A DNA stretch of 43,817 nucleotides from a virus (lineage: Duplodnaviria > Heunggongvirae > Uroviricota > Caudoviricetes), in the IMG/VR virus record IMGVR_UViG_2558860161_000008, positions 1-43,817 of that record; one strand, written 5' to 3'. Under the pieces are notes generated by a model that saw only the letters and a program-made list of their open reading frames with translations, was not told where the DNA came from and ran no database searches. Each line of letters starts with the position of its first letter. The stretch's first letter is position 1. The translations under genes were made by a program, and so were the position numbers. Positions 36,189-43,441 of this stretch are shown one piece after another.

Positions 36189-37331
36189 ATGCCGTTTAAA
36201 CGACCGACGCTGAGCGAACTCCGCGACGGAAACCGGAAATTTATGCAGGCGGAGCTTGAGGATGTTGGTGCGCTACTGCGCTTCGCGAACCTGAAGGTAC
36301 TGGCTGACATGGATGCGGGGATGGGGCATCTGCATTACGCCTACCTTGACTATATTGCCCTGCAGACAAACCCGTTTACCTCTACCGATGAGTATCTCGC
36401 CGGGTGGATGGCCCTTAAGCAGGTATTCAGAAAACCAGCTGCAGCGGCGAAGTCGCCTGCGGTACAGGCTAGTGGCAGTGTTGACTGTATTATCCCTGTT
36501 GGCTCGATCATTAACCGCGGGGACGGATACCAGTACCGGACGGATGCAGATCTTAAAATTCAGGCAGATGGATTTGGTATCGTCGCGGTGACGGCCATAC
36601 TGCCGGATATTACCAGTGATGTAACGGGTGGAGGCGCGCGCGGTAACGCTGATGCCGGGACCATAATGACCCTGGACGCGAATATTGCTGGCGTGGATCC
36701 ACAGGTAACGTTACTGTCCGCTGCGACCGGCGGAGCCGATATTGAAACGGAAGAGGATTTTCGCAGTCGTGGCTTGCTGGCATGGCAGAATCCGCCTCAG
36801 GGTGGAAGCGACGCCGATTATAAAAAATGGGCGCTTGAGGTTTCGGGCGTCACCCGCGCGTGGGTAAAGCGGCGTCTGAACGGGGCCGGGACCGTTGGCG
36901 TGTATATCATGTGTGATCGGAATGACAATGGTGGGTTTCCGGTCGGTACCGACGGAATATCCCAACTTGAGGACTGGGGGGCTGTTAAAGCCACCGGAGA
37001 CCAGCTCGCTGTCGCCGACCACATCTATCCGCAGCAGACAGACACTGCCATTGTTTTCGTATGTTCCCCGATCAAGAAAGTCATCAATATTGAAATCTCT
37101 GGGATCAAAAATGCCGACAGCACCACAGTTCAGGGGATAAAAGACGCGCTGACGGCGCTGTTTTTTGATGAAGCTAACCCTGATGGTTCCGGGAAAGTTT
37201 ACCTCTCTGATATTAACGGGAGTATCGGCGGTGTTAGCGGCACGACGGGCTATATTCTTAACTCTCCGACGGCCAATATCACCTTTGCTGTTGGCGAAAT
37301 TCCGGTGCTTGGCGGGGTGAATTTTGTATGA
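36189..37331 (+). CDS. Baseplate J-like protein (Mu gp47-like)
   Basis: ATG at 36189 right after the upstream stop; 380 aa. Confidence 0.7.
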   Translation: MPFKRPTLSELRDGNRKFMQAELEDVGALLRFANLKVLADMDAGMGHLHYAYLDYIALQTNPFTSTDEYLAGWMALKQVFRKPAAAAKSPAVQASGSVDCIIPVGSIINRGDGYQYRTDADLKIQADGFGIVAVTAILPDITSDVTGGGARGNADAGTIMTLDANIAGVDPQVTLLSAATGGADIETEEDFRSRGLLAWQNPPQGGSDADYKKWALEVSGVTRAWVKRRLNGAGTVGVYIMCDRNDNGGFPVGTDGISQLEDWGAVKATGDQLAVADHIYPQQTDTAIVFVCSPIKKVINIEISGIKNADSTTVQGIKDALTALFFDEANPDGSGKVYLSDINGSIGGVSGTTGYILNSPTANITFAVGEIPVLGGVNFV

Positions 37332-37921
37332 GCCTCTTTTCAAAAAATGATTATGCCGGTGCGCTTGGTGCGCTGCTACCGACGGGCAGGGCGTGGCCCC
37401 GGTCGCAAAGAACGGTACAGGCTGCGGTATTACGGGCACTGGGCAGCGCGTTTCAGCGTTCTGACAACGATGCGCAAAGCCTGATTACTGGTGCTTTTCC
37501 CCCTACAGCGACGGTAATGTTGTCAGAATGGGAAAGCTCTCTGGGGTTACCAGATGATTGTGCGATTGGTGAATCCGGTGGCGTCAGCGATCGCCAGCGC
37601 GCCGTGGTGGCAAAGTTAATCAGCACCGGCGGCCTGAACCGCGATTATTACATCCGGGTGGCTGCAGCTCTTGGTTATACCATCACTATCACACAGTTCC
37701 GGCCCGCTATGAGTGGCATGTCAGTATGCGGTGATGCGCTTAACGGTGACGAGTGGCCATTTACCTGGCGGATAAATGCGCCACAAACAACGATCAAGTA
37801 TTCGCTTGCTGGCGCGTCCTACTGCGGAGATCCGCTCGCATCGTGGGGCAATAAACAACTGGAGTGTTCAATCAACAAAATTGCCCCATCCCATCTGAAC
37901 ATCATTTTCAATTATTCATAA
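37328..37921 (+). CDS. Tail protein (DUF2313, e14 YmfQ-like)
   Basis: 197-aa ORF, ATGA-coupled to the baseplate J gene. Confidence 0.6.
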   Translation: MSLFSKNDYAGALGALLPTGRAWPRSQRTVQAAVLRALGSAFQRSDNDAQSLITGAFPPTATVMLSEWESSLGLPDDCAIGESGGVSDRQRAVVAKLISTGGLNRDYYIRVAAALGYTITITQFRPAMSGMSVCGDALNGDEWPFTWRINAPQTTIKYSLAGASYCGDPLASWGNKQLECSINKIAPSHLNIIFNYS

Positions 37922-37972
37922 CTGATATTTCCCCCTCTGATTTTATCGCTTAACACTAAGTGAGGATTAACT

Positions 37973-38704
37973 ATGCTCCGAATCGGGCAAGTCGAAGCCA
38001 CTGCAACGCAGGATGGCAAATATACTGATGGAAGTGTTGCTGGTGGTATTGCCGCAACGAGGCTGCGGGCAGCAGCGTTTAATGCCATGCAGGAAGAGTT
38101 AGCGCATATCGTAGAGTCAGCAGGATTGGCGCTCGACATTAACGATATGACTCAGGTTTTAAAAGCCATTCAAAAACTCACACTGAGCCGTGCAAACCCA
38201 TTTGCCGATATCAAATCAGATGGTGCAGCGGCGATTTCTACGGCTCTCACAAACCTTGGATTAACCAACGCGATAATTGGTGATACCTGTAAAGAAGCAG
38301 GGTTCTACTCAGGAAGTGCCCTTGCCCCTTATCTTATGCATGAGGACACTCACACACCCATCCGCCTGGTAACGCTGGATAGCGTTCATCGAGTAACAAC
38401 CACTACTTACACTATTAATTATTATGCGAATGGCTTAATTCATATTTTAGGTATGACCCCAAAAGTCAGCTCTTTGACTCCCAAGACCATGACATTCCCA
38501 GTGGCGTTCCCAAATGCTTGTATTCGGTTTGCATTGCACAACCAAGAAAGTGGCGTCCCATCCTACAATATGGCGATGTATTCTAATTTAAGCAGAACGG
38601 GCGCGAAGATATGGGGAGTGGCAAACATTCTTGGGAACAGTGGAAGCCCGACGCTAGGCGCGCTACCGGACGCTGAAATCTCTTATGAAGCATGGGGTTA
38701 CTGA
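37973..38704 (+). CDS. Tail fibre protein: constant N-terminal part fused to the currently expressed variable C-terminus
   Basis: 243 aa; spans the left inversion crossover site near 38244-38269. Confidence 0.6.
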   Translation: MLRIGQVEATATQDGKYTDGSVAGGIAATRLRAAAFNAMQEELAHIVESAGLALDINDMTQVLKAIQKLTLSRANPFADIKSDGAAAISTALTNLGLTNAIIGDTCKEAGFYSGSALAPYLMHEDTHTPIRLVTLDSVHRVTTTTYTINYYANGLIHILGMTPKVSSLTPKTMTFPVAFPNACIRFALHNQESGVPSYNMAMYSNLSRTGAKIWGVANILGNSGSPTLGALPDAEISYEAWGY

Positions 38705-38705
38705 T

Positions 38706-39143
38706 ATGACATTTTTCTACAGCGCAGCACATAATATTTTTGTTTCAGATATTAACAAAACGAGCTATGAGGATGCTGGCTCGTGGCCAGAAGATGCAAA
38801 AGAAGTTTCAGATGAATTATTTTATCAATATTCGCAAAATCCACCGAAAGGCAAAATTCGATCCCATGCAGATGGCCTGCCCATCTGGGAAGATGTCCCA
38901 CCTATGACTGAAGCAGAACTTATTCTGAAAAATAAGAATGAAAAACAACTTCGTATCGATGAAGCCAATAATTATATGAACGGTAAGCAATGGCCAGGTA
39001 AAGCGGCTATTGGTCGTCTGAAAGGTGAGGAACTGGCGCAATATAATTTGTGGCTGGATTATCTGGACGCACTGGAACTGGTTGATACCTCCAGTGCTCC
39101 AGATATTGAATGGCCTACGCATCCGGCAGTTCAGGCCAGATGA
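38706..39143 (+). CDS. Tail fibre assembly protein (Tfa), current orientation
   Basis: 145 aa; C-terminal LWLDYLDALELVDTSSAPDIEWP typical of Tfa chaperones. Confidence 0.55.
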   Translation: MTFFYSAAHNIFVSDINKTSYEDAGSWPEDAKEVSDELFYQYSQNPPKGKIRSHADGLPIWEDVPPMTEAELILKNKNEKQLRIDEANNYMNGKQWPGKAAIGRLKGEELAQYNLWLDYLDALELVDTSSAPDIEWPTHPAVQAR

Positions 39144-39717
39144 CATCCGGCGCGGTGCTGGTATCTGTTGCCGCCACCGCATCAATGTAATCCAGCACAG
39201 CGTTAAGCCGGGTTGTTTCTGCCTGCGTCAGTTTACGTCCGGCCCGTAATTTCAGCTGAATCAGACTAATGGAAGCCATTGCAGCATCAATCAGTGACTG
39301 GCGTTGGATTTCTGCCGCGTCCACTGCGGCGCTATATTGTGCCTCAGTATCCGTCACCCATTTCTCACCATCCCATTTATCATATGGTGTTAACGGGGTG
39401 ATAGTGGTTATATTTTCAGGGTAATCACCCAGAGCTGTGATTTCTTTGGCGTCTCCCGTTTCGGTGTTATAGACAATTTCACCGCGATGGTCTGGTACAT
39501 ATTCCCATGAGTTAAAATCTGCAGAACGGCAGATTGCATAACCAGCTTTATGTGTAACTGGTGCATCTAAACAAGAACATGCCGGGATACCGACGCCAAC
39601 GGCAAGATATTCTGTTGATGATGAAATGTATTCCCGTGTCGTGTTGTCATAGTTATAGACGGTAATATCACCCGCTACTGTGGCAATAAATTCACTGTTT
39701 AATTTTGCCTGTGTCAT
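39115..39717 (-). CDS. Tail fibre assembly protein (Tfa), alternative orientation
   Basis: 200 aa; C-terminal LNAVLDYIDAVAATDTSTAPDVIWPELP Tfa signature; convergent with the plus-strand tfa. Confidence 0.55.
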   Translation of the reverse strand: MTQAKLNSEFIATVAGDITVYNYDNTTREYISSSTEYLAVGVGIPACSCLDAPVTHKAGYAICRSADFNSWEYVPDHRGEIVYNTETGDAKEITALGDYPENITTITPLTPYDKWDGEKWVTDTEAQYSAAVDAAEIQRQSLIDAAMASISLIQLKLRAGRKLTQAETTRLNAVLDYIDAVAATDTSTAPDVIWPELPDA

Positions 39718-40148
39718 TATGCAGCCCTCACAATGTAGTTAAATGCAATGTTGCGGGGGCGCGTTTCATTTCCGTCGGTGTCGCCGGTATCTCTGCCTGC
39801 ATTACCGGAATAGTCGTATACAGCGCCAGTCCCTCCCCCTGTGGCATAGCCTCTAAAAAACGTAAATGCGTGGTGGTGCGCTTTAAATAAATCGGACTGC
39901 GCCGAGAGAAGCGCGCGCCCCGCGTCAATACCGCGCCCGTCATCCCAGCCACGAATAAACTCACCACGTAAATCTGGCAATTCATTTGTCGGATAAACTT
40001 TTGCCAGTTCCGGATACTCTTCGGCAGAAAAAGGCGCACCATTGCATTTCAGCCAGCCTGTTGGCGGAGTGGCTGAAGGCCACGGAACAGGTACACCAAC
40101 GGGTAACGCTGAGCCTTCTCCCAAACCAACCTTTTTTATAACCATCAA
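39717..40148 (-). CDS. Alternative tail-fibre variable C-terminal segment (silent until inversion)
   Basis: 143-aa ORF with tail-fibre/collar-like motifs (GWLKCNGAPF); 5' end lies in the right crossover site. Confidence 0.55.
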   Translation of the reverse strand: MMVIKKVGLGEGSALPVGVPVPWPSATPPTGWLKCNGAPFSAEEYPELAKVYPTNELPDLRGEFIRGWDDGRGIDAGRALLSAQSDLFKAHHHAFTFFRGYATGGGTGAVYDYSGNAGRDTGDTDGNETRPRNIAFNYIVRAA

Positions 40149-40200
40149 AAATCTGGTGATGCTTCGCCGTTTCTCCTGTTTTCATAACAGGAGAAATCCC

Positions 40201-40764
40201 ATGATTTACGGTTATGCCCGAGTATCAACAAACCACCAGGACACTGAATTGCAACTAACGGCGCTCAAGTCAGCGGGTTGTGAGAAAATTTTTGAAGAGC
40301 ATGCCAGCGGGAGGAAATCGAATCGGCCGGTTCTAAAACGGCTGATCGCCACTATGCAGCCGGGGGATGAACTGGTGGTCTGGAAGCTGGACAGGATAGG
40401 CCGCAACGTTCTGCATGCGCTGTTGATGTTCCAGCAGTTACAGGAAAAGGGTATCAACTTCCGCAGTATTACAGATGGCGTAGACCTGAAAACAGCAAGT
40501 GGTCGCTATAATTTCCGTAATATTCTTTCTGCTGCGCAGTATGAATCTGATTTGAATAGCGAGCGAACTTTAGCTGGTTTGGCTATTGCCAGATCCAAAG
40601 GCCGGATTGGTGGGCGTAGACCGAAGTTTAGCGACGAGCAGTGGCAACAGATGGGAGCGCTCATAGCGGCAGGGAAATCACGGCGTTATGTTGCACGTAT
40701 CTATAACGTTGGGCTATCAACCCTATATAAACGATTTCCTGTTACTGGCATTCAAACGAAATAA
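40201..40764 (+). CDS. Serine DNA invertase (Pin/Gin/Hin family)
   Basis: 187 aa; N-terminal GYARVSTNHQ catalytic serine motif and C-terminal HTH; AGGAGA RBS sequestered in a 10-bp perfect hairpin (40170-40195). Confidence 0.85.
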   Translation: MIYGYARVSTNHQDTELQLTALKSAGCEKIFEEHASGRKSNRPVLKRLIATMQPGDELVVWKLDRIGRNVLHALLMFQQLQEKGINFRSITDGVDLKTASGRYNFRNILSAAQYESDLNSERTLAGLAIARSKGRIGGRRPKFSDEQWQQMGALIAAGKSRRYVARIYNVGLSTLYKRFPVTGIQTK

Positions 40765-40811
40765 TTTAAAAGCAATTTAAAGAGTTATTTGTCTAATGTT
40801 GGAAGCCGCAG

Positions 40812-40847
40812 CCACGTCGTATGCAAGAACGTGCTGCGGCTGGCTGG
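40812..40847. terminator. Bidirectional hairpin between the convergent invertase and DinI-like genes
   Basis: GCCGCAGCCACGT...ACGTGCTGCGGC inverted repeat. Confidence 0.45.
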
Positions 40848-40907: not shown

Positions 40908-41156
40908 TTAGTGAACAAACCACTCGTCAGCAGATTCCCAGGTATCTTTCAGAGTCTCCTGAACAAAAGTTTTTGCAGAATCCTTATCTGCGGTGCGTGT
41001 AACAGAAAGGCCATCGTTGCTGGTGGCTTTTACGATCACCTCTACATCGTCATAACGTTTACTGATGCGTCGGGTTAATTCTTCCTTTAACGCATCCACA
41101 GCACCGGTTGGCATTTTAGTCATTTTTTCTTTGGCTATGCAGATTTCAATACGCAT
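40908..41156 (-). CDS. DinI-like DNA-damage-inducible protein
   Basis: 82 aa; closely matches the DinI pattern (MRIE...AK...[11 protein letters not shown]). Confidence 0.75.
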
Positions 41157-41169
41157 AAAAGTCCCTCTA

Positions 41170-41214
41170 TACTGTGTTTGTATACAGTATTATTTTTAAC
41201 TGTATGGATAAACA
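41170..41214. promoter_or_regulatory. Two LexA (SOS) boxes upstream of the DinI-like gene
   Basis: TACTGTgtttgtatACAGTA (41170-41189) and CTGTatggataaACAG (41199-41214), both CTGT-N8-ACAG. Confidence 0.6.
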
Positions 41215-41217
41215 GTG

Positions 41218-42315
41218 TCAAGAGATCTTATTTCTGCTCCTTTGGAGCTCTTCAAAACGATTATGTAAAGATTTTGGATACAGTTCGGTATATACCTGCC
41301 ATAGCACGTTTAATGAACGATGCCCTGTAACCTGGGCTACTTCCTCAATACTAAAACCAGCCTCAAATAAGCGACTTGCCCCTTCTCTACGCAAATCATG
41401 GTATCGCAGATCCTTAATACCTAATTTGCTTCTTACCCTCTGAAATCCCGCAGTAACAGAAGTGCTGTTATATGGAAAAATGAATTCCGATTTTTGGGGC
41501 TGTCGTTGGACGATATCCCAGGCTTCCCCAAGCAAGGCTACTTTCATGTGGTTGCCTTCCTTTTTGCGTGGATCTTTCCTGTCTCTTACGAGTATAGATT
41601 TTTGTTCCTGGTCGAGATCTTCCCATCGTAACCGGCATACTTCTCCGATTCGCATACAGGACCACACAGAAAATTTGAGGATATCAACGAACGGAATTTT
41701 TGAGCATTTATGAGTAGATCGTTGTTGAAGGCCTTCAATGAGCATGTCCAGTTCATCAGATGCTGGTCTACGATTACGACGGTTTGATTTACCAATTAAA
41801 CCAAGTTTAAGTAGATATGGACGAGCGGCTTTTGCTGGGTTTGATGTGTAATTAATTCCATATACAGGTTTGGCAGCATCCAGAACACTGCCAAGATAAC
41901 TAACATCGTGGCTAACTGTAGCTGGACCTGCACCAGCGTTGTTTCTTAGCCTGCAATGTTCAATTACGTCATTTTCTGTCAGTTCAGATAGTTTGATCGC
42001 GGAGATGTCACTATCCATAAGCAGTTCCAGCACATATCTTTTAGTACGGCCTGCTTTACCTCCGGCATTTGGGTCATTTAAATATTTGTGTAGTAAGTCA
42101 CGGACTGTAAGTCCGTCAACTGCATTTGATGATGGAATGCCATATAGATCTAATTCCATCACTTTCTGTGTGCCCCATGTTTTGGCATGAGCATGTTTAG
42201 GGAATGTTTTGCTTTCCCTGTAAGTGATAACACCTTTTTCTTTGATAATCACATTACAGCGATAGCGTGGTGTGCCATCGGATTTTAGTCGTTTCTCTAT
42301 GTTATAGTACGCCAT
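41218..42315 (-). CDS. Tyrosine integrase (dusA-associated type)
   Basis: 365 aa; C-terminal catalytic region with R...HDLRR...Y motifs; adjacent to and divergent from dusA. Confidence 0.85.
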   Translation of the reverse strand: MAYYNIEKRLKSDGTPRYRCNVIIKEKGVITYRESKTFPKHAHAKTWGTQKVMELDLYGIPSSNAVDGLTVRDLLHKYLNDPNAGGKAGRTKRYVLELLMDSDISAIKLSELTENDVIEHCRLRNNAGAGPATVSHDVSYLGSVLDAAKPVYGINYTSNPAKAARPYLLKLGLIGKSNRRNRRPASDELDMLIEGLQQRSTHKCSKIPFVDILKFSVWSCMRIGEVCRLRWEDLDQEQKSILVRDRKDPRKKEGNHMKVALLGEAWDIVQRQPQKSEFIFPYNSTSVTAGFQRVRSKLGIKDLRYHDLRREGASRLFEAGFSIEEVAQVTGHRSLNVLWQVYTELYPKSLHNRFEELQRSRNKIS

Positions 42316-42403
42316 TACACGACCTCGTTATTTCGGGTTCCCATAAAACGTGGGAACCTGTGCGGGAACCTAACGCGAGAAAAATAGCCTGAAATGTTCA
42401 AAA

Positions 42404-43441
42404 ATGCACGATAATCATGAAACACAAAAAATTAATCAAACCAGCGTGATGCCTGAAAAAACTGGTGTTTACTGGAATTCTCGGTTTAGCATTGCTCCTA
42501 TGCTCGACTGGACGGACAGACATTGCCGCTATTTCTTGCGTCTGCTTTCCCGCAATACGTTGCTGTATACCGAAATGGTGACCACAGGGGCGATTATTCA
42601 CGGTAAAGGTGATTACCTGGCGTACAGTGAAGAAGAACATCCGGTAGCGTTGCAACTCGGCGGTAGCGATCCGGCGGCGCTGGCACAGTGTGCGAAGCTG
42701 GCAGAAGCGCGTGGATATGATGAGATCAACCTGAATGTCGGCTGCCCGTCTGACCGGGTGCAGAACGGCATGTTTGGTGCGTGTCTGATGGGTAATGCGC
42801 AGCTGGTTGCCGACTGCGTGAAAGCGATGCGCGATGTGGTGTCGATTCCGGTGACGGTGAAAACGCGTATTGGCATCGACGACCAGGACAGCTATGAATT
42901 TCTCTGCGATTTCATCAACACCGTTTCCGGCAAAGGCGAGTGTGAGATGTTCATCATCCATGCACGTAAAGCCTGGCTTTCGGGGTTAAGTCCGAAAGAA
43001 AACCGTGAGATCCCGCCGCTCGATTATCCGCGTGTGTATCAACTGAAGCGTGACTTTCCGCATCTGACAATGTCGATTAACGGTGGTATCAAGTCGCTGG
43101 AAGAGGCCAAAGCACACCTGCAACATATGGATGGCGTGATGGTCGGGCGCGAGGCGTATCAGAATCCGGGTATTCTGGCGGCGGTAGACCGGGAGATCTT
43201 TGGTTCCTCGGATATCGATGCCGATCCGGTGGCGGTAGTGCGCGCCATGTATCCGTACATTGAGCGTGAACTCAGCCAGGGGACGTATCTCGGTCATATT
43301 ACCCGGCATATGTTGGGCTTGTTCCAGGGTATTCCTGGCGCGCGGCAGTGGCGGCGTTATTTAAGTGAAAATGCCCATAAAGCGGGTGCAGACATTAATG
43401 TGCTGGAACACGCGCTCAAACTGGTGGCGGATAAGCGTTAA
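42404..43441 (+). CDS. dusA: tRNA-dihydrouridine synthase A; 5' end likely supplied by the prophage
   Basis: 345 aa; near-full-length match to remembered E. coli DusA; integrase immediately upstream. Confidence 0.85.

Follow-up and report, generated by a model that had tools for sequence, protein, structure and literature searches.

Site-specific inversion switches of the Din family, among them Gin/G of phage Mu, Cin/C of phage P1 and Hin/H of Salmonella, combine a small serine invertase with two quasi-palindromic 26-bp crossover sites that have a 2-bp core; in Mu and P1 the inversion swaps the C-terminus of a tail fibre together with its assembly gene tfa. The same components are present towards the right end of the virus record IMGVR_UViG_2558860161_000008 (Duplodnaviria; Caudoviricetes), analysed here over its whole length of 43,817 nucleotides (referred to below as the window; all positions are window positions). 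Sequence comparison supports the assignment of this region to the Pin/Gin-type (Din-family) site-specific inversion switches, carried here by a prophage. A PinL-type serine invertase gene lies next to a segment with two alternative fibre C-termini, and a hairpin in the leader of this gene very probably buries the ribosome-binding site, keeping the enzyme scarce. The explanation as a whole, a Din-type fibre switch together with a hairpin that occludes the Shine-Dalgarno (SD) sequence and limits invertase output, is given a probability of about 0.7.

The switch belongs to a well-known class; its closest relative is the P segment of e14 with PinE in Escherichia coli K-12 (stfP-tfaP / tfaE-stfE-pinE), and its enzyme is that of phi80 pinL. 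Gene order is the same in e14 and in the window: a YmfQ-type baseplate gene, a constant fibre N-terminus, two convergent cassettes each consisting of a C-terminus and a tfa gene, and the invertase gene outside the right crossover site. The inner half and core of the right site (CCTTCTCCCAAACCAA) are identical in the two systems, the DNA encoding tfa' and C-terminus B is 87% identical, and the segments are 1797 bp (e14) and 1874 bp (window) long. Four differences separate them. The invertases share only 57% identity. The e14 leader has no strong hairpin, its SD being unpaired with a probability of 0.17 (z = -0.25). Both inner half-sites of e14 are good, whereas the left inner half in the window is degenerate (GGATTAACCAAC), so that the two orientations are unequal in site quality. 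Finally, e14 is inserted in icd, and the prophage of the window lies beside dusA, with an integrase and a dinI gene.

Phages phi80, mEp237, HK225 and SKA5 encode invertases 88-90% identical to that of the window and share with it the leader, the hairpin and a conserved outer half of the right crossover site. The phi80 leader carries a C-G variant at the base of the stem, and the arms appear in its GenBank record (NC_021190) as repeat "IR3", to which no function is assigned there. Phi80 differs in being lambdoid, and between its fibre gene and pinL nothing but an internal tail-collar pseudogene fragment is annotated in the record.

The invertase leader also resembles that of an insertion sequence. 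In the tnpA leader of IS200, a terminator located upstream counters impinging transcription and a stem-loop sequesters a near-consensus SD, as supported by experiment (PMC4513863). The likeness, which is a functional analogy and does not imply membership, consists of a recombinase gene, a weak promoter, an upstream hairpin and then an SD-burying stem-loop. Sequence and enzyme are unrelated, however; the IS200 stem is long (nt 69-138) and is accompanied by an antisense small RNA and Hfq control, whereas no antisense RNA is evident in the window apart from a non-significant promoter-like match on the minus strand (40228-40201).

The invertible fibre segment and its crossover sites

The short tail-fibre gene is a complete open reading frame (ORF) on the plus strand (37973-38704). 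Its constant N-terminal part (37973-38255, +) lies outside the invertible segment, as indicated by matches to other genomes, which diverge at the crossover site. The remainder encodes variable C-terminus A (38258-38704, +; Pfam Gp53-like_C, E = 8.9e-9), the currently expressed one, and is followed by the corresponding assembly gene tfa (38706-39143, +; Caudo_TAP, E = 3.2e-28). The alternative C-terminus B is encoded on the opposite strand (39717-40127, -; Collar, E = 6.4e-15); it is silent, having neither a promoter nor a start, and is part of a start-less reading frame spanning 39717-40148. Its own assembly gene, the TfaE-like tfa' (39115-39717, -; Caudo_TAP, E = 4.2e-31), is convergent with tfa. 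A first-pass annotation, made from the letters of the window, had already recognised a second C-terminus and a second tfa on the opposite strand within the segment, and both are borne out by these domain assignments.

The right crossover site, TTCTCCCAAACC-AA-CCTTTTTTATAA, occupies 40116-40141, with the core AA at 40128-40129. It stands exactly as the first-pass annotation had reported it, as a site of the Gin/Hin/Pin type, and its inner half plus core (40114-40129, CCTTCTCCCAAACCAA) matches the published repeat of the e14 P segment at 16/16 positions (PMC12529663). The left site, CTCTCACAAACC-TT-GGATTAACCAAC, occupies 38244-38269, with the core TT at 38256-38257, and combines a good outer half with a degenerate inner half. 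Both sites are 26 bp long, each composed of two imperfect 12-bp half-sites around the core, and the invertible segment between the cores is 1,874 bp (38256-40129). The cores AA and TT are reverse complements of each other, and the two sites are therefore inverted relative to each other. The pattern of the good half-site, YTCTCNCAAACCWW, occurs twice in the 43.8-kb window, both times at the proposed sites, a count that is partly circular because the pattern was derived from the same two sites; the match to the e14 repeat serves as an independent check. A generic inverted-repeat search over 37900-40300 missed the pair, since the shared repeat is too short for such a search; this accounts for the doubt about the left site expressed in the first-pass annotation, a doubt that is removed by the position at which natural inversion breaks (38256-7).

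Inversion was traced by megablast comparison of the window with 5,426 complete E. coli genomes, which gave three informative matches. The whole region is collinear with the window in E. coli 2022CK-00450 (H1; L002), while the other two matches are confined to the segment, covering only 38245-40134 in E. coli KMi029 (H2; L001) and only 38256-40129, i.e. the interval between the sites, in E. coli 1368KP (H3; L004). Strains 2022CK-00450 and 1368KP carry the same prophage at yciI/tonB, with identical accessions for the YmfQ, baseplate J, GP46 and recombinase proteins, and the flanks in 1368KP are inverted relative to the segment when set against those in 2022CK-00450. After in silico inversion of the 2022CK-00450 locus at both cores, it differs from that of 1368KP by 16 mismatches in 3500 nt, versus 1389 without inversion. 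The junctions of the two loci are exact reciprocal recombinants, with the breakpoints on cores 38256-7 and 40128-9. Natural inversion at these sites, as had been predicted, is established by this comparison between two strains, which is distinct from a population assay of this lysogen; both orientations are seen across strains, with exchange at the left as well as at the right site.

Additional comparisons agree with exchange at the cores. In about 30 E. coli genomes the constant N-terminus is matched at 99% or more as far as query position 157-158 (window 38262-3), where divergence sets in, and among 80 viral-contig relatives the tfa pair is found in either orientation relative to the invertase gene. 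Inversion of the window in silico yields a 231-aa fibre ORF (...TNLGLGEGS...) in which the Collar domain is fused in frame to the constant part, with tfa' following directly. Either orientation thus specifies an intact fibre ORF with its own tfa, of 243 aa with the Gp53-like C-terminus or 231 aa with the Collar C-terminus, and the fusion of the constant part to C-terminus B is annotated as a fibre in strain 1368KP. The locus has the organisation of a fibre-inversion cassette like Mu G, P1 C, e14 P and p15B Min, with the constant N-terminus outside the segment and opposed C-termini, each with a tfa gene, inside it. The role of this switch in host range is suggested by homology to the known systems.

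In KMi029 (3001-4890) the cassette is 99.8% identical to that of the window and resides in a P2-like prophage whose fibre N-terminus is unrelated and whose invertase is another, Pin-like one. Since homology ends inside both sites, whole cassettes have been exchanged there between unrelated phages.

The half-sites are distributed asymmetrically: in the window orientation, a good half is combined with a poor one at each site. Inversion turns the left site into a near-perfect palindrome, CTCTCACAAACC-TT-GGTTTGGGAGAA, and leaves the right site, GTTGGTTAATCC-AA-CCTTTTTTATAA, with a degenerate inner half beside its unchanged outer half. Among the complete E. coli genomes searched, the junction of the window (junction A) was found in 1 and the flipped junction B in 15, and the asymmetry of the half-sites together with these counts could reflect an orientation bias. 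A second AACC-AA-CG motif, located 11 bp inside the left site (38263-38272), has its core oriented like that of the right site and resembles the e14 right site (AAACC-AA-CGTTT); it is probably due to chance.

The invertase and the hairpin in its leader

The invertase gene (40201-40764, +) lies just outside the right crossover site and codes for a protein of 187 aa with Pfam Resolvase (E = 3e-38) and HTH_7 (E = 7e-12) domains. The protein matches the structure of Mu Gin (PDB 3uj3) with E = 1e-58 over residues 1-181, including the catalytic Ser9 and the GRIGGR arm. With this small serine recombinase, two inverted 26-bp sites with a 2-bp core and exchange at the core, the system is a member of the Din family. 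Amino acid identity is 88-89% to phi80 pinL (88.5%), mEp237 and HK225 and 90% to SKA5, versus 57% to e14 Pin and about 53% to Gin and Cin, which identifies the enzyme as a PinL-type Din-family member; no specific invertase equivalog was found in NCBIfam.

The 5' 440 nt of the gene are 91% identical to those of 2022CK-00450, and the leaders are 100% identical. The match to this strain ends at 40645, inside the invertase gene, and everything to the right, from the C-terminal helix-turn-helix part onward, differs, with dinI, integrase and dusA in the window and yciI/tonB in 2022CK-00450. The invertase gene itself is thus mosaic, with a joint inside it.

Helix E of the PinL subfamily (residues 100-125, SGRYNFRNILSAAQYESDLNSERT) is near-invariant in 38 distinct genes and is far from that of Gin (GRFFFHVMGALAEVERELIIERT), with R106 and Y114 in place of H106 and M114. 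It is at residues 106 and 114 that hyperactive, Fis-independent mutants of Gin, Cin and Hin are found.

The start codon of the invertase gene is preceded by a hairpin at 40169-40197, comprising the 5' arm GTTTCTCCTGTT (40169-40180), the loop TTCAT (40181-40185) and the 3' arm AACAGGAGAAAT (40186-40197). Its stem consists of 11 perfect pairs (40170-40196) and the additional pair G40169-U40197. The SD AGGAG (40189-40193) lies within the 3' arm, opposite an anti-SD-like sequence upstream, and the ATG is at 40201, an arrangement of the IS200/IS10 type. In the first-pass annotation this structure was described as a perfect 10-bp inverted repeat at 40170-40195. The perfect arms of that length are confirmed, but at 40171-40180 and 40186-40195; the reported start was one base early, and pairing extends to 11 pairs.

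The isolated hairpin has a predicted energy of -16.0 kcal/mol (z = -6.7), and none of 200 shuffled sequences was as stable; for the 89-nt leader the value is -27.8 kcal/mol (z = -4.7). The palindrome occurs once in the window and not at all in shuffles. The SD is unpaired with a probability of 0.00, compared with a mean of 0.29 when the upstream sequence is shuffled (0/200 shuffles as low), and the computed cost of opening 40186-40215 is about 20 kcal/mol. Occlusion of the ribosome-binding site, as had been proposed from the sequence, is thus supported thermodynamically (SD about 0.1% unpaired) and by strong conservation of the 5' arm. No Rfam family covers the hairpin. An intrinsic terminator was considered and rejected, since no U tract stands behind the large hairpin, which is followed by AUCCCAUG on the plus strand and ACGGCGAAG on the minus strand; it is not listed by the terminator scan either.

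Conservation was assessed in the 80 viral-contig loci, of which one (L163) was set aside, leaving 79 with a readable leader and invertases of 81-100% amino acid identity. The hairpin is kept in all 79, one variant having a single C-A mismatch, and also in Shimwellia (86%). When 21 distinct leaders are compared, column identity averages 0.98 in each arm and 0.67 in the spacer that links the crossover site to the hairpin region, and about 97-98% of the cells are paired versus 45-65% with the partners slid. The little variation there is agrees with pairing: at pair 11, 14 leaders have U-A, the 4 of the phi80 group have C-G, and a single one (L308) has U-G; this last, a relative with 66% identity, keeps the arms around a 6-nt loop. 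An A-C stem mismatch, in the 5' arm, is found in the decayed copies L311 and L274 (invertase reading frame only 35 codons). The palindrome TTCTCCTGTT-N5-AACAGGAGAA occurs 80 times in the viral contigs examined, each time 5-6 nt ahead of a MIYGY.RVST invertase start. Pairing is accordingly conserved in relatives, and the share of covariation is thin.

SD occlusion was also considered as a general trait of the Din family and rejected as such: in a comparison of 36 leaders with their shuffles it is strong in the PinL subfamily only. Elsewhere it is sporadic (P1, L007, L014, L017 and L023), and it is absent in Mu. In L167 (mEpX1) and L017, whose invertases are 75% and 53% identical to that of the window, the SD is covered by another long-range pairing, TTCACC...GGGTGAA (in L017, SD unpaired 0.01, p = 0.015), and SD masking may hence have arisen more than once in the family.

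A candidate weak sigma-70 promoter of the invertase gene was found by a position weight matrix scan at 40135-40163 (+), with the -35 element TTTATA (40135-40140), a 17-bp spacer and the -10 element GATGCT (40158-40163). The -35 element falls within the outer half of the right crossover site. Of 13 leaders scored, 11 have this pair in first or second rank at the same position; a stricter promoter scan does not list it. The transcription start predicted from it is about 40169-40171, at the base of the stem, with an uncertainty of about 3 nt, which would place the whole hairpin within the invertase's own mRNA. Just upstream of the stem, and overlapping the promoter candidate, lies a small hairpin (40155-40168, +), GGTGA-TGCT-TCGCC, of 5-6 bp followed by a U-rich stretch, which is weakly terminator-like. 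At its middle pair, 12 leaders have C-G, 6 have U-G and 1 has U-A, so that pairing is kept in all three states, and the U-G state fits an RNA of the plus strand.

Several other readings of the leader were examined. The in-frame ATG at 40159 was rejected as invertase start because it is not conserved, relatives having GATATT, GATCTC or similar at this place. A 67-aa minus-strand ORF beginning in the hairpin loop (40185) was rejected for the same reason, the loop reading CAT, CAC or TAC. On the minus strand, the promoter-like match at 40228-40201 (TTGATA-16-AATCAT, 9/12) is directed leftward from the first invertase codons, and an antisense RNA over the leader hairpin, as in IS200 and IS10, would come from it; promoter-like matches in the region are at chance level (7 found, 6.3 expected), and this one is non-significant. 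Common to Pin/Gin-type invertase genes is a motif TGGCAT(C/G)AT...GC(T/C)TTT about 20-40 nt before the start, seen in e14 (L003, ~5650-5670), Mu (L165, ~3447-3465), L007, L008, L010, L012, L015 and L021. Its reading as a sigma-54 -24/-12 element (TGGCAT-N7-GCTTTT), for which the GG-N10-GC spacing fits in e14 and Mu, was set aside in favour of the simpler extended -10 (TGnCATCAT). In the PinL-type leaders such as that of the window, the motif is absent or shifted.

Competing explanations of the leader palindrome

The mechanism proposed for the locus begins with pairing of the 26-bp sites by the invertase, which would exchange strands at the 2-bp cores and flip 38256-40129. The constant fibre N-terminus would thereby be joined either to the Gp53-like C-terminus with tfa, the present state, or to the Collar C-terminus with tfa', and this swap would be expected to alter the receptor-binding tip of the fibre. 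The frequency of flipping would be limited by the scarcity of the invertase. Its gene would be transcribed from the weak candidate promoter, and in the leader hairpin the SD AGGAG would pair with the anti-SD-like CUCCU of the 5' arm, so that 30S subunits would bind rarely. The small terminator-like hairpin upstream may damp read-through from the late fibre operon. Both the translational repression and its effect on the inversion rate are predictions from the fold.

A number of observations weigh against this explanation. Eight of the 12 stem pairs never vary, and covariation is limited to about two evolutionary events; the case for the hairpin rests mainly on conservation of the non-coding 5' arm. 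The 3' arm would be constrained anyway as SD, and the change from U-A to C-G would preserve a DNA palindrome as well. In Mu gin the SD is predicted to be open, with an unpaired probability of 0.67, and among about 30 other leaders the majority behave like their shuffles. A Fis enhancer inside the invertase gene was not confirmed by a motif scan and an analysis of synonymous-site constraint. Mu and P1 have two Fis-like G...C 15-mers 48 bp apart, at +53 and +101, whereas the window gene keeps the signature at +101 only, +53 being variable within the subfamily (crude motif scan), and synonymous diversity along the gene has no clear dip. A further difficulty concerns the transcription start, which is only predicted. 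SD accessibility depends steeply on the 5' end, being 0.001 for ends at or before 40169, 0.005 at 40171, 0.30 at 40174 and 0.46 at 40177, and a start three nucleotides farther downstream than 40171 would let the invertase's own mRNA escape the hairpin.

The same dependence is an argument for an insulator against read-through, resembling the fold-back inhibition of IS10. In that case the gene's own transcripts would begin within or beyond the 5' arm and undergo normal translation, while only the long transcripts that come from the late fibre operon and run through the invertible segment would carry the anti-SD arm and be blocked, preventing a burst of invertase during lytic growth. This explanation agrees with the lack of a strong plus-strand terminator between tfa and the invertase gene, where only weak terminator-like matches are found, and with the extended -10-like element of e14 and Mu (TGnCAT(C/G)AT), which would put the start downstream of the SD-pairing pyrimidine stretch. 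The best conserved promoter candidate, however, starts at the base of the stem, a weak prediction in view of its uncertainty, and the insulator is regarded as rather unlikely. Less likely still is an operator acting at the DNA level, whereby a dimeric protein, perhaps the invertase, would bind the duplex TTCTCCTGTT-N5-AACAGGAGAA and repress transcription at +1 in the manner of a resolvase accessory site or of Hin at hixL. The dyad is indeed perfect, is located at the predicted transcription start and survives the U-A to C-G change, and its outer hexamers TTCTCC/GGAGAA equal those of the good crossover half-site TTCTCCCAAACC. Nevertheless, the arms span 25 bp, not 26, and G/C stands 6 bp from the dyad centre, a distance at which Din invertases need A/T for minor-groove contact. 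The 6-nt loop and the stem-base U-G pair of L308 suit an RNA and break the DNA dyad, the neighbouring small hairpin likewise has U-G pairs among the leaders, Pin- and Gin-type genes with the same half-sites have no such palindrome, and GGAGAA is simply explained as the SD.

The stem-loop might also have little effect on translation, either as a 5'-terminal stabiliser of the mRNA that, as in ompA, would protect it from decay dependent on the 5' end, or as a functionless structure, and this is thought very improbable. A start at about 40169 would make the hairpin exactly 5'-terminal, as a stabiliser should be, but placing the SD inside the stem is not needed for stabilising, and the computed opening cost (about 20 kcal/mol) stands against it. 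Such a cost is far above what translation initiation tolerates in SD-occluding structures. Lack of function is at odds with a 5' arm at 0.98 column identity beside a spacer at 0.67 and with the 80/80 association of the palindrome with the invertase gene. Limitation of invertase output by SD occlusion is the preferred explanation of the hairpin.

A more elaborate version of this SD-occlusion explanation, considered unlikely, is that PinL-type genes carry a two-tier leader like that of IS200, in which a terminator-like hairpin overlies the promoter and a 5'-terminal hairpin occludes the SD, inversion frequency being set post-transcriptionally. If this is true, the ratio of fibre types in a lysogen population would be set after transcription and could be raised by whatever opens the stem. 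The throttle may then accompany the unusual helix E (R106, Y114), which could make the enzyme less dependent on an enhancer and more dangerous in itself.

Neighbouring genes and biological meaning

The gene content identifies the right end of the window as a prophage arm, with a baseplate similar to those of Mu and e14 and a tail of the myovirus type. The Mu-like baseplate genes precede the fibre gene, the last of them being a Gp48/YmfQ-type gene (37328-37921). Downstream of the invertase gene are a dinI-like gene (40908-41156, -), a tyrosine integrase gene (41218-42315, -) and bacterial dusA (42404-43441). Counterparts with 98% identity to the dinI-like gene and the integrase are present in mEp460 and several Stx phages; in the window the pair abuts the 5' end of dusA directly, and 40908-43441 can be described as a dusA-associated integration module on a mosaic phage with a myovirus-type tail. 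In the interval between the invertase gene and the convergent dinI-like gene is a long imperfect stem-loop, GCCGCAGCCACGT...ACGTGCTGCGGC (40808-40846), with no T run behind it. An Rfam match to CssrB, below threshold at 22 bits (gathering score 76), overlaps this structure, which may act as a terminator in both directions.

Since fibre cassettes of the invertible kind are textbook systems, the switch in itself brings little that is new, and the value of this locus lies in a clean, naturally documented example, which also shows whole cassettes moving between unrelated phages via the crossover sites. In a literature search covering open-access text, no account emerged of a Din invertase being throttled translationally by a hairpin of this kind, and the hairpin throttle is a plausible, specific and testable regulatory detail of modest novelty. 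One widespread invertase lineage, represented in phi80, mEp237, SKA5 and many E. coli prophages, has a near-invariant hairpin covering the ribosome-binding site, whereas Mu gin is without it. The low invertase levels behind slow stochastic switching have been little studied, and the hairpin offers a simple mutable handle on them. Inversion of the e14 P segment has recently been linked to resistance to phage T2 (PMC12529663), and how tightly the amount of invertase is controlled may therefore be relevant to defence of the host besides the host range of the phage.

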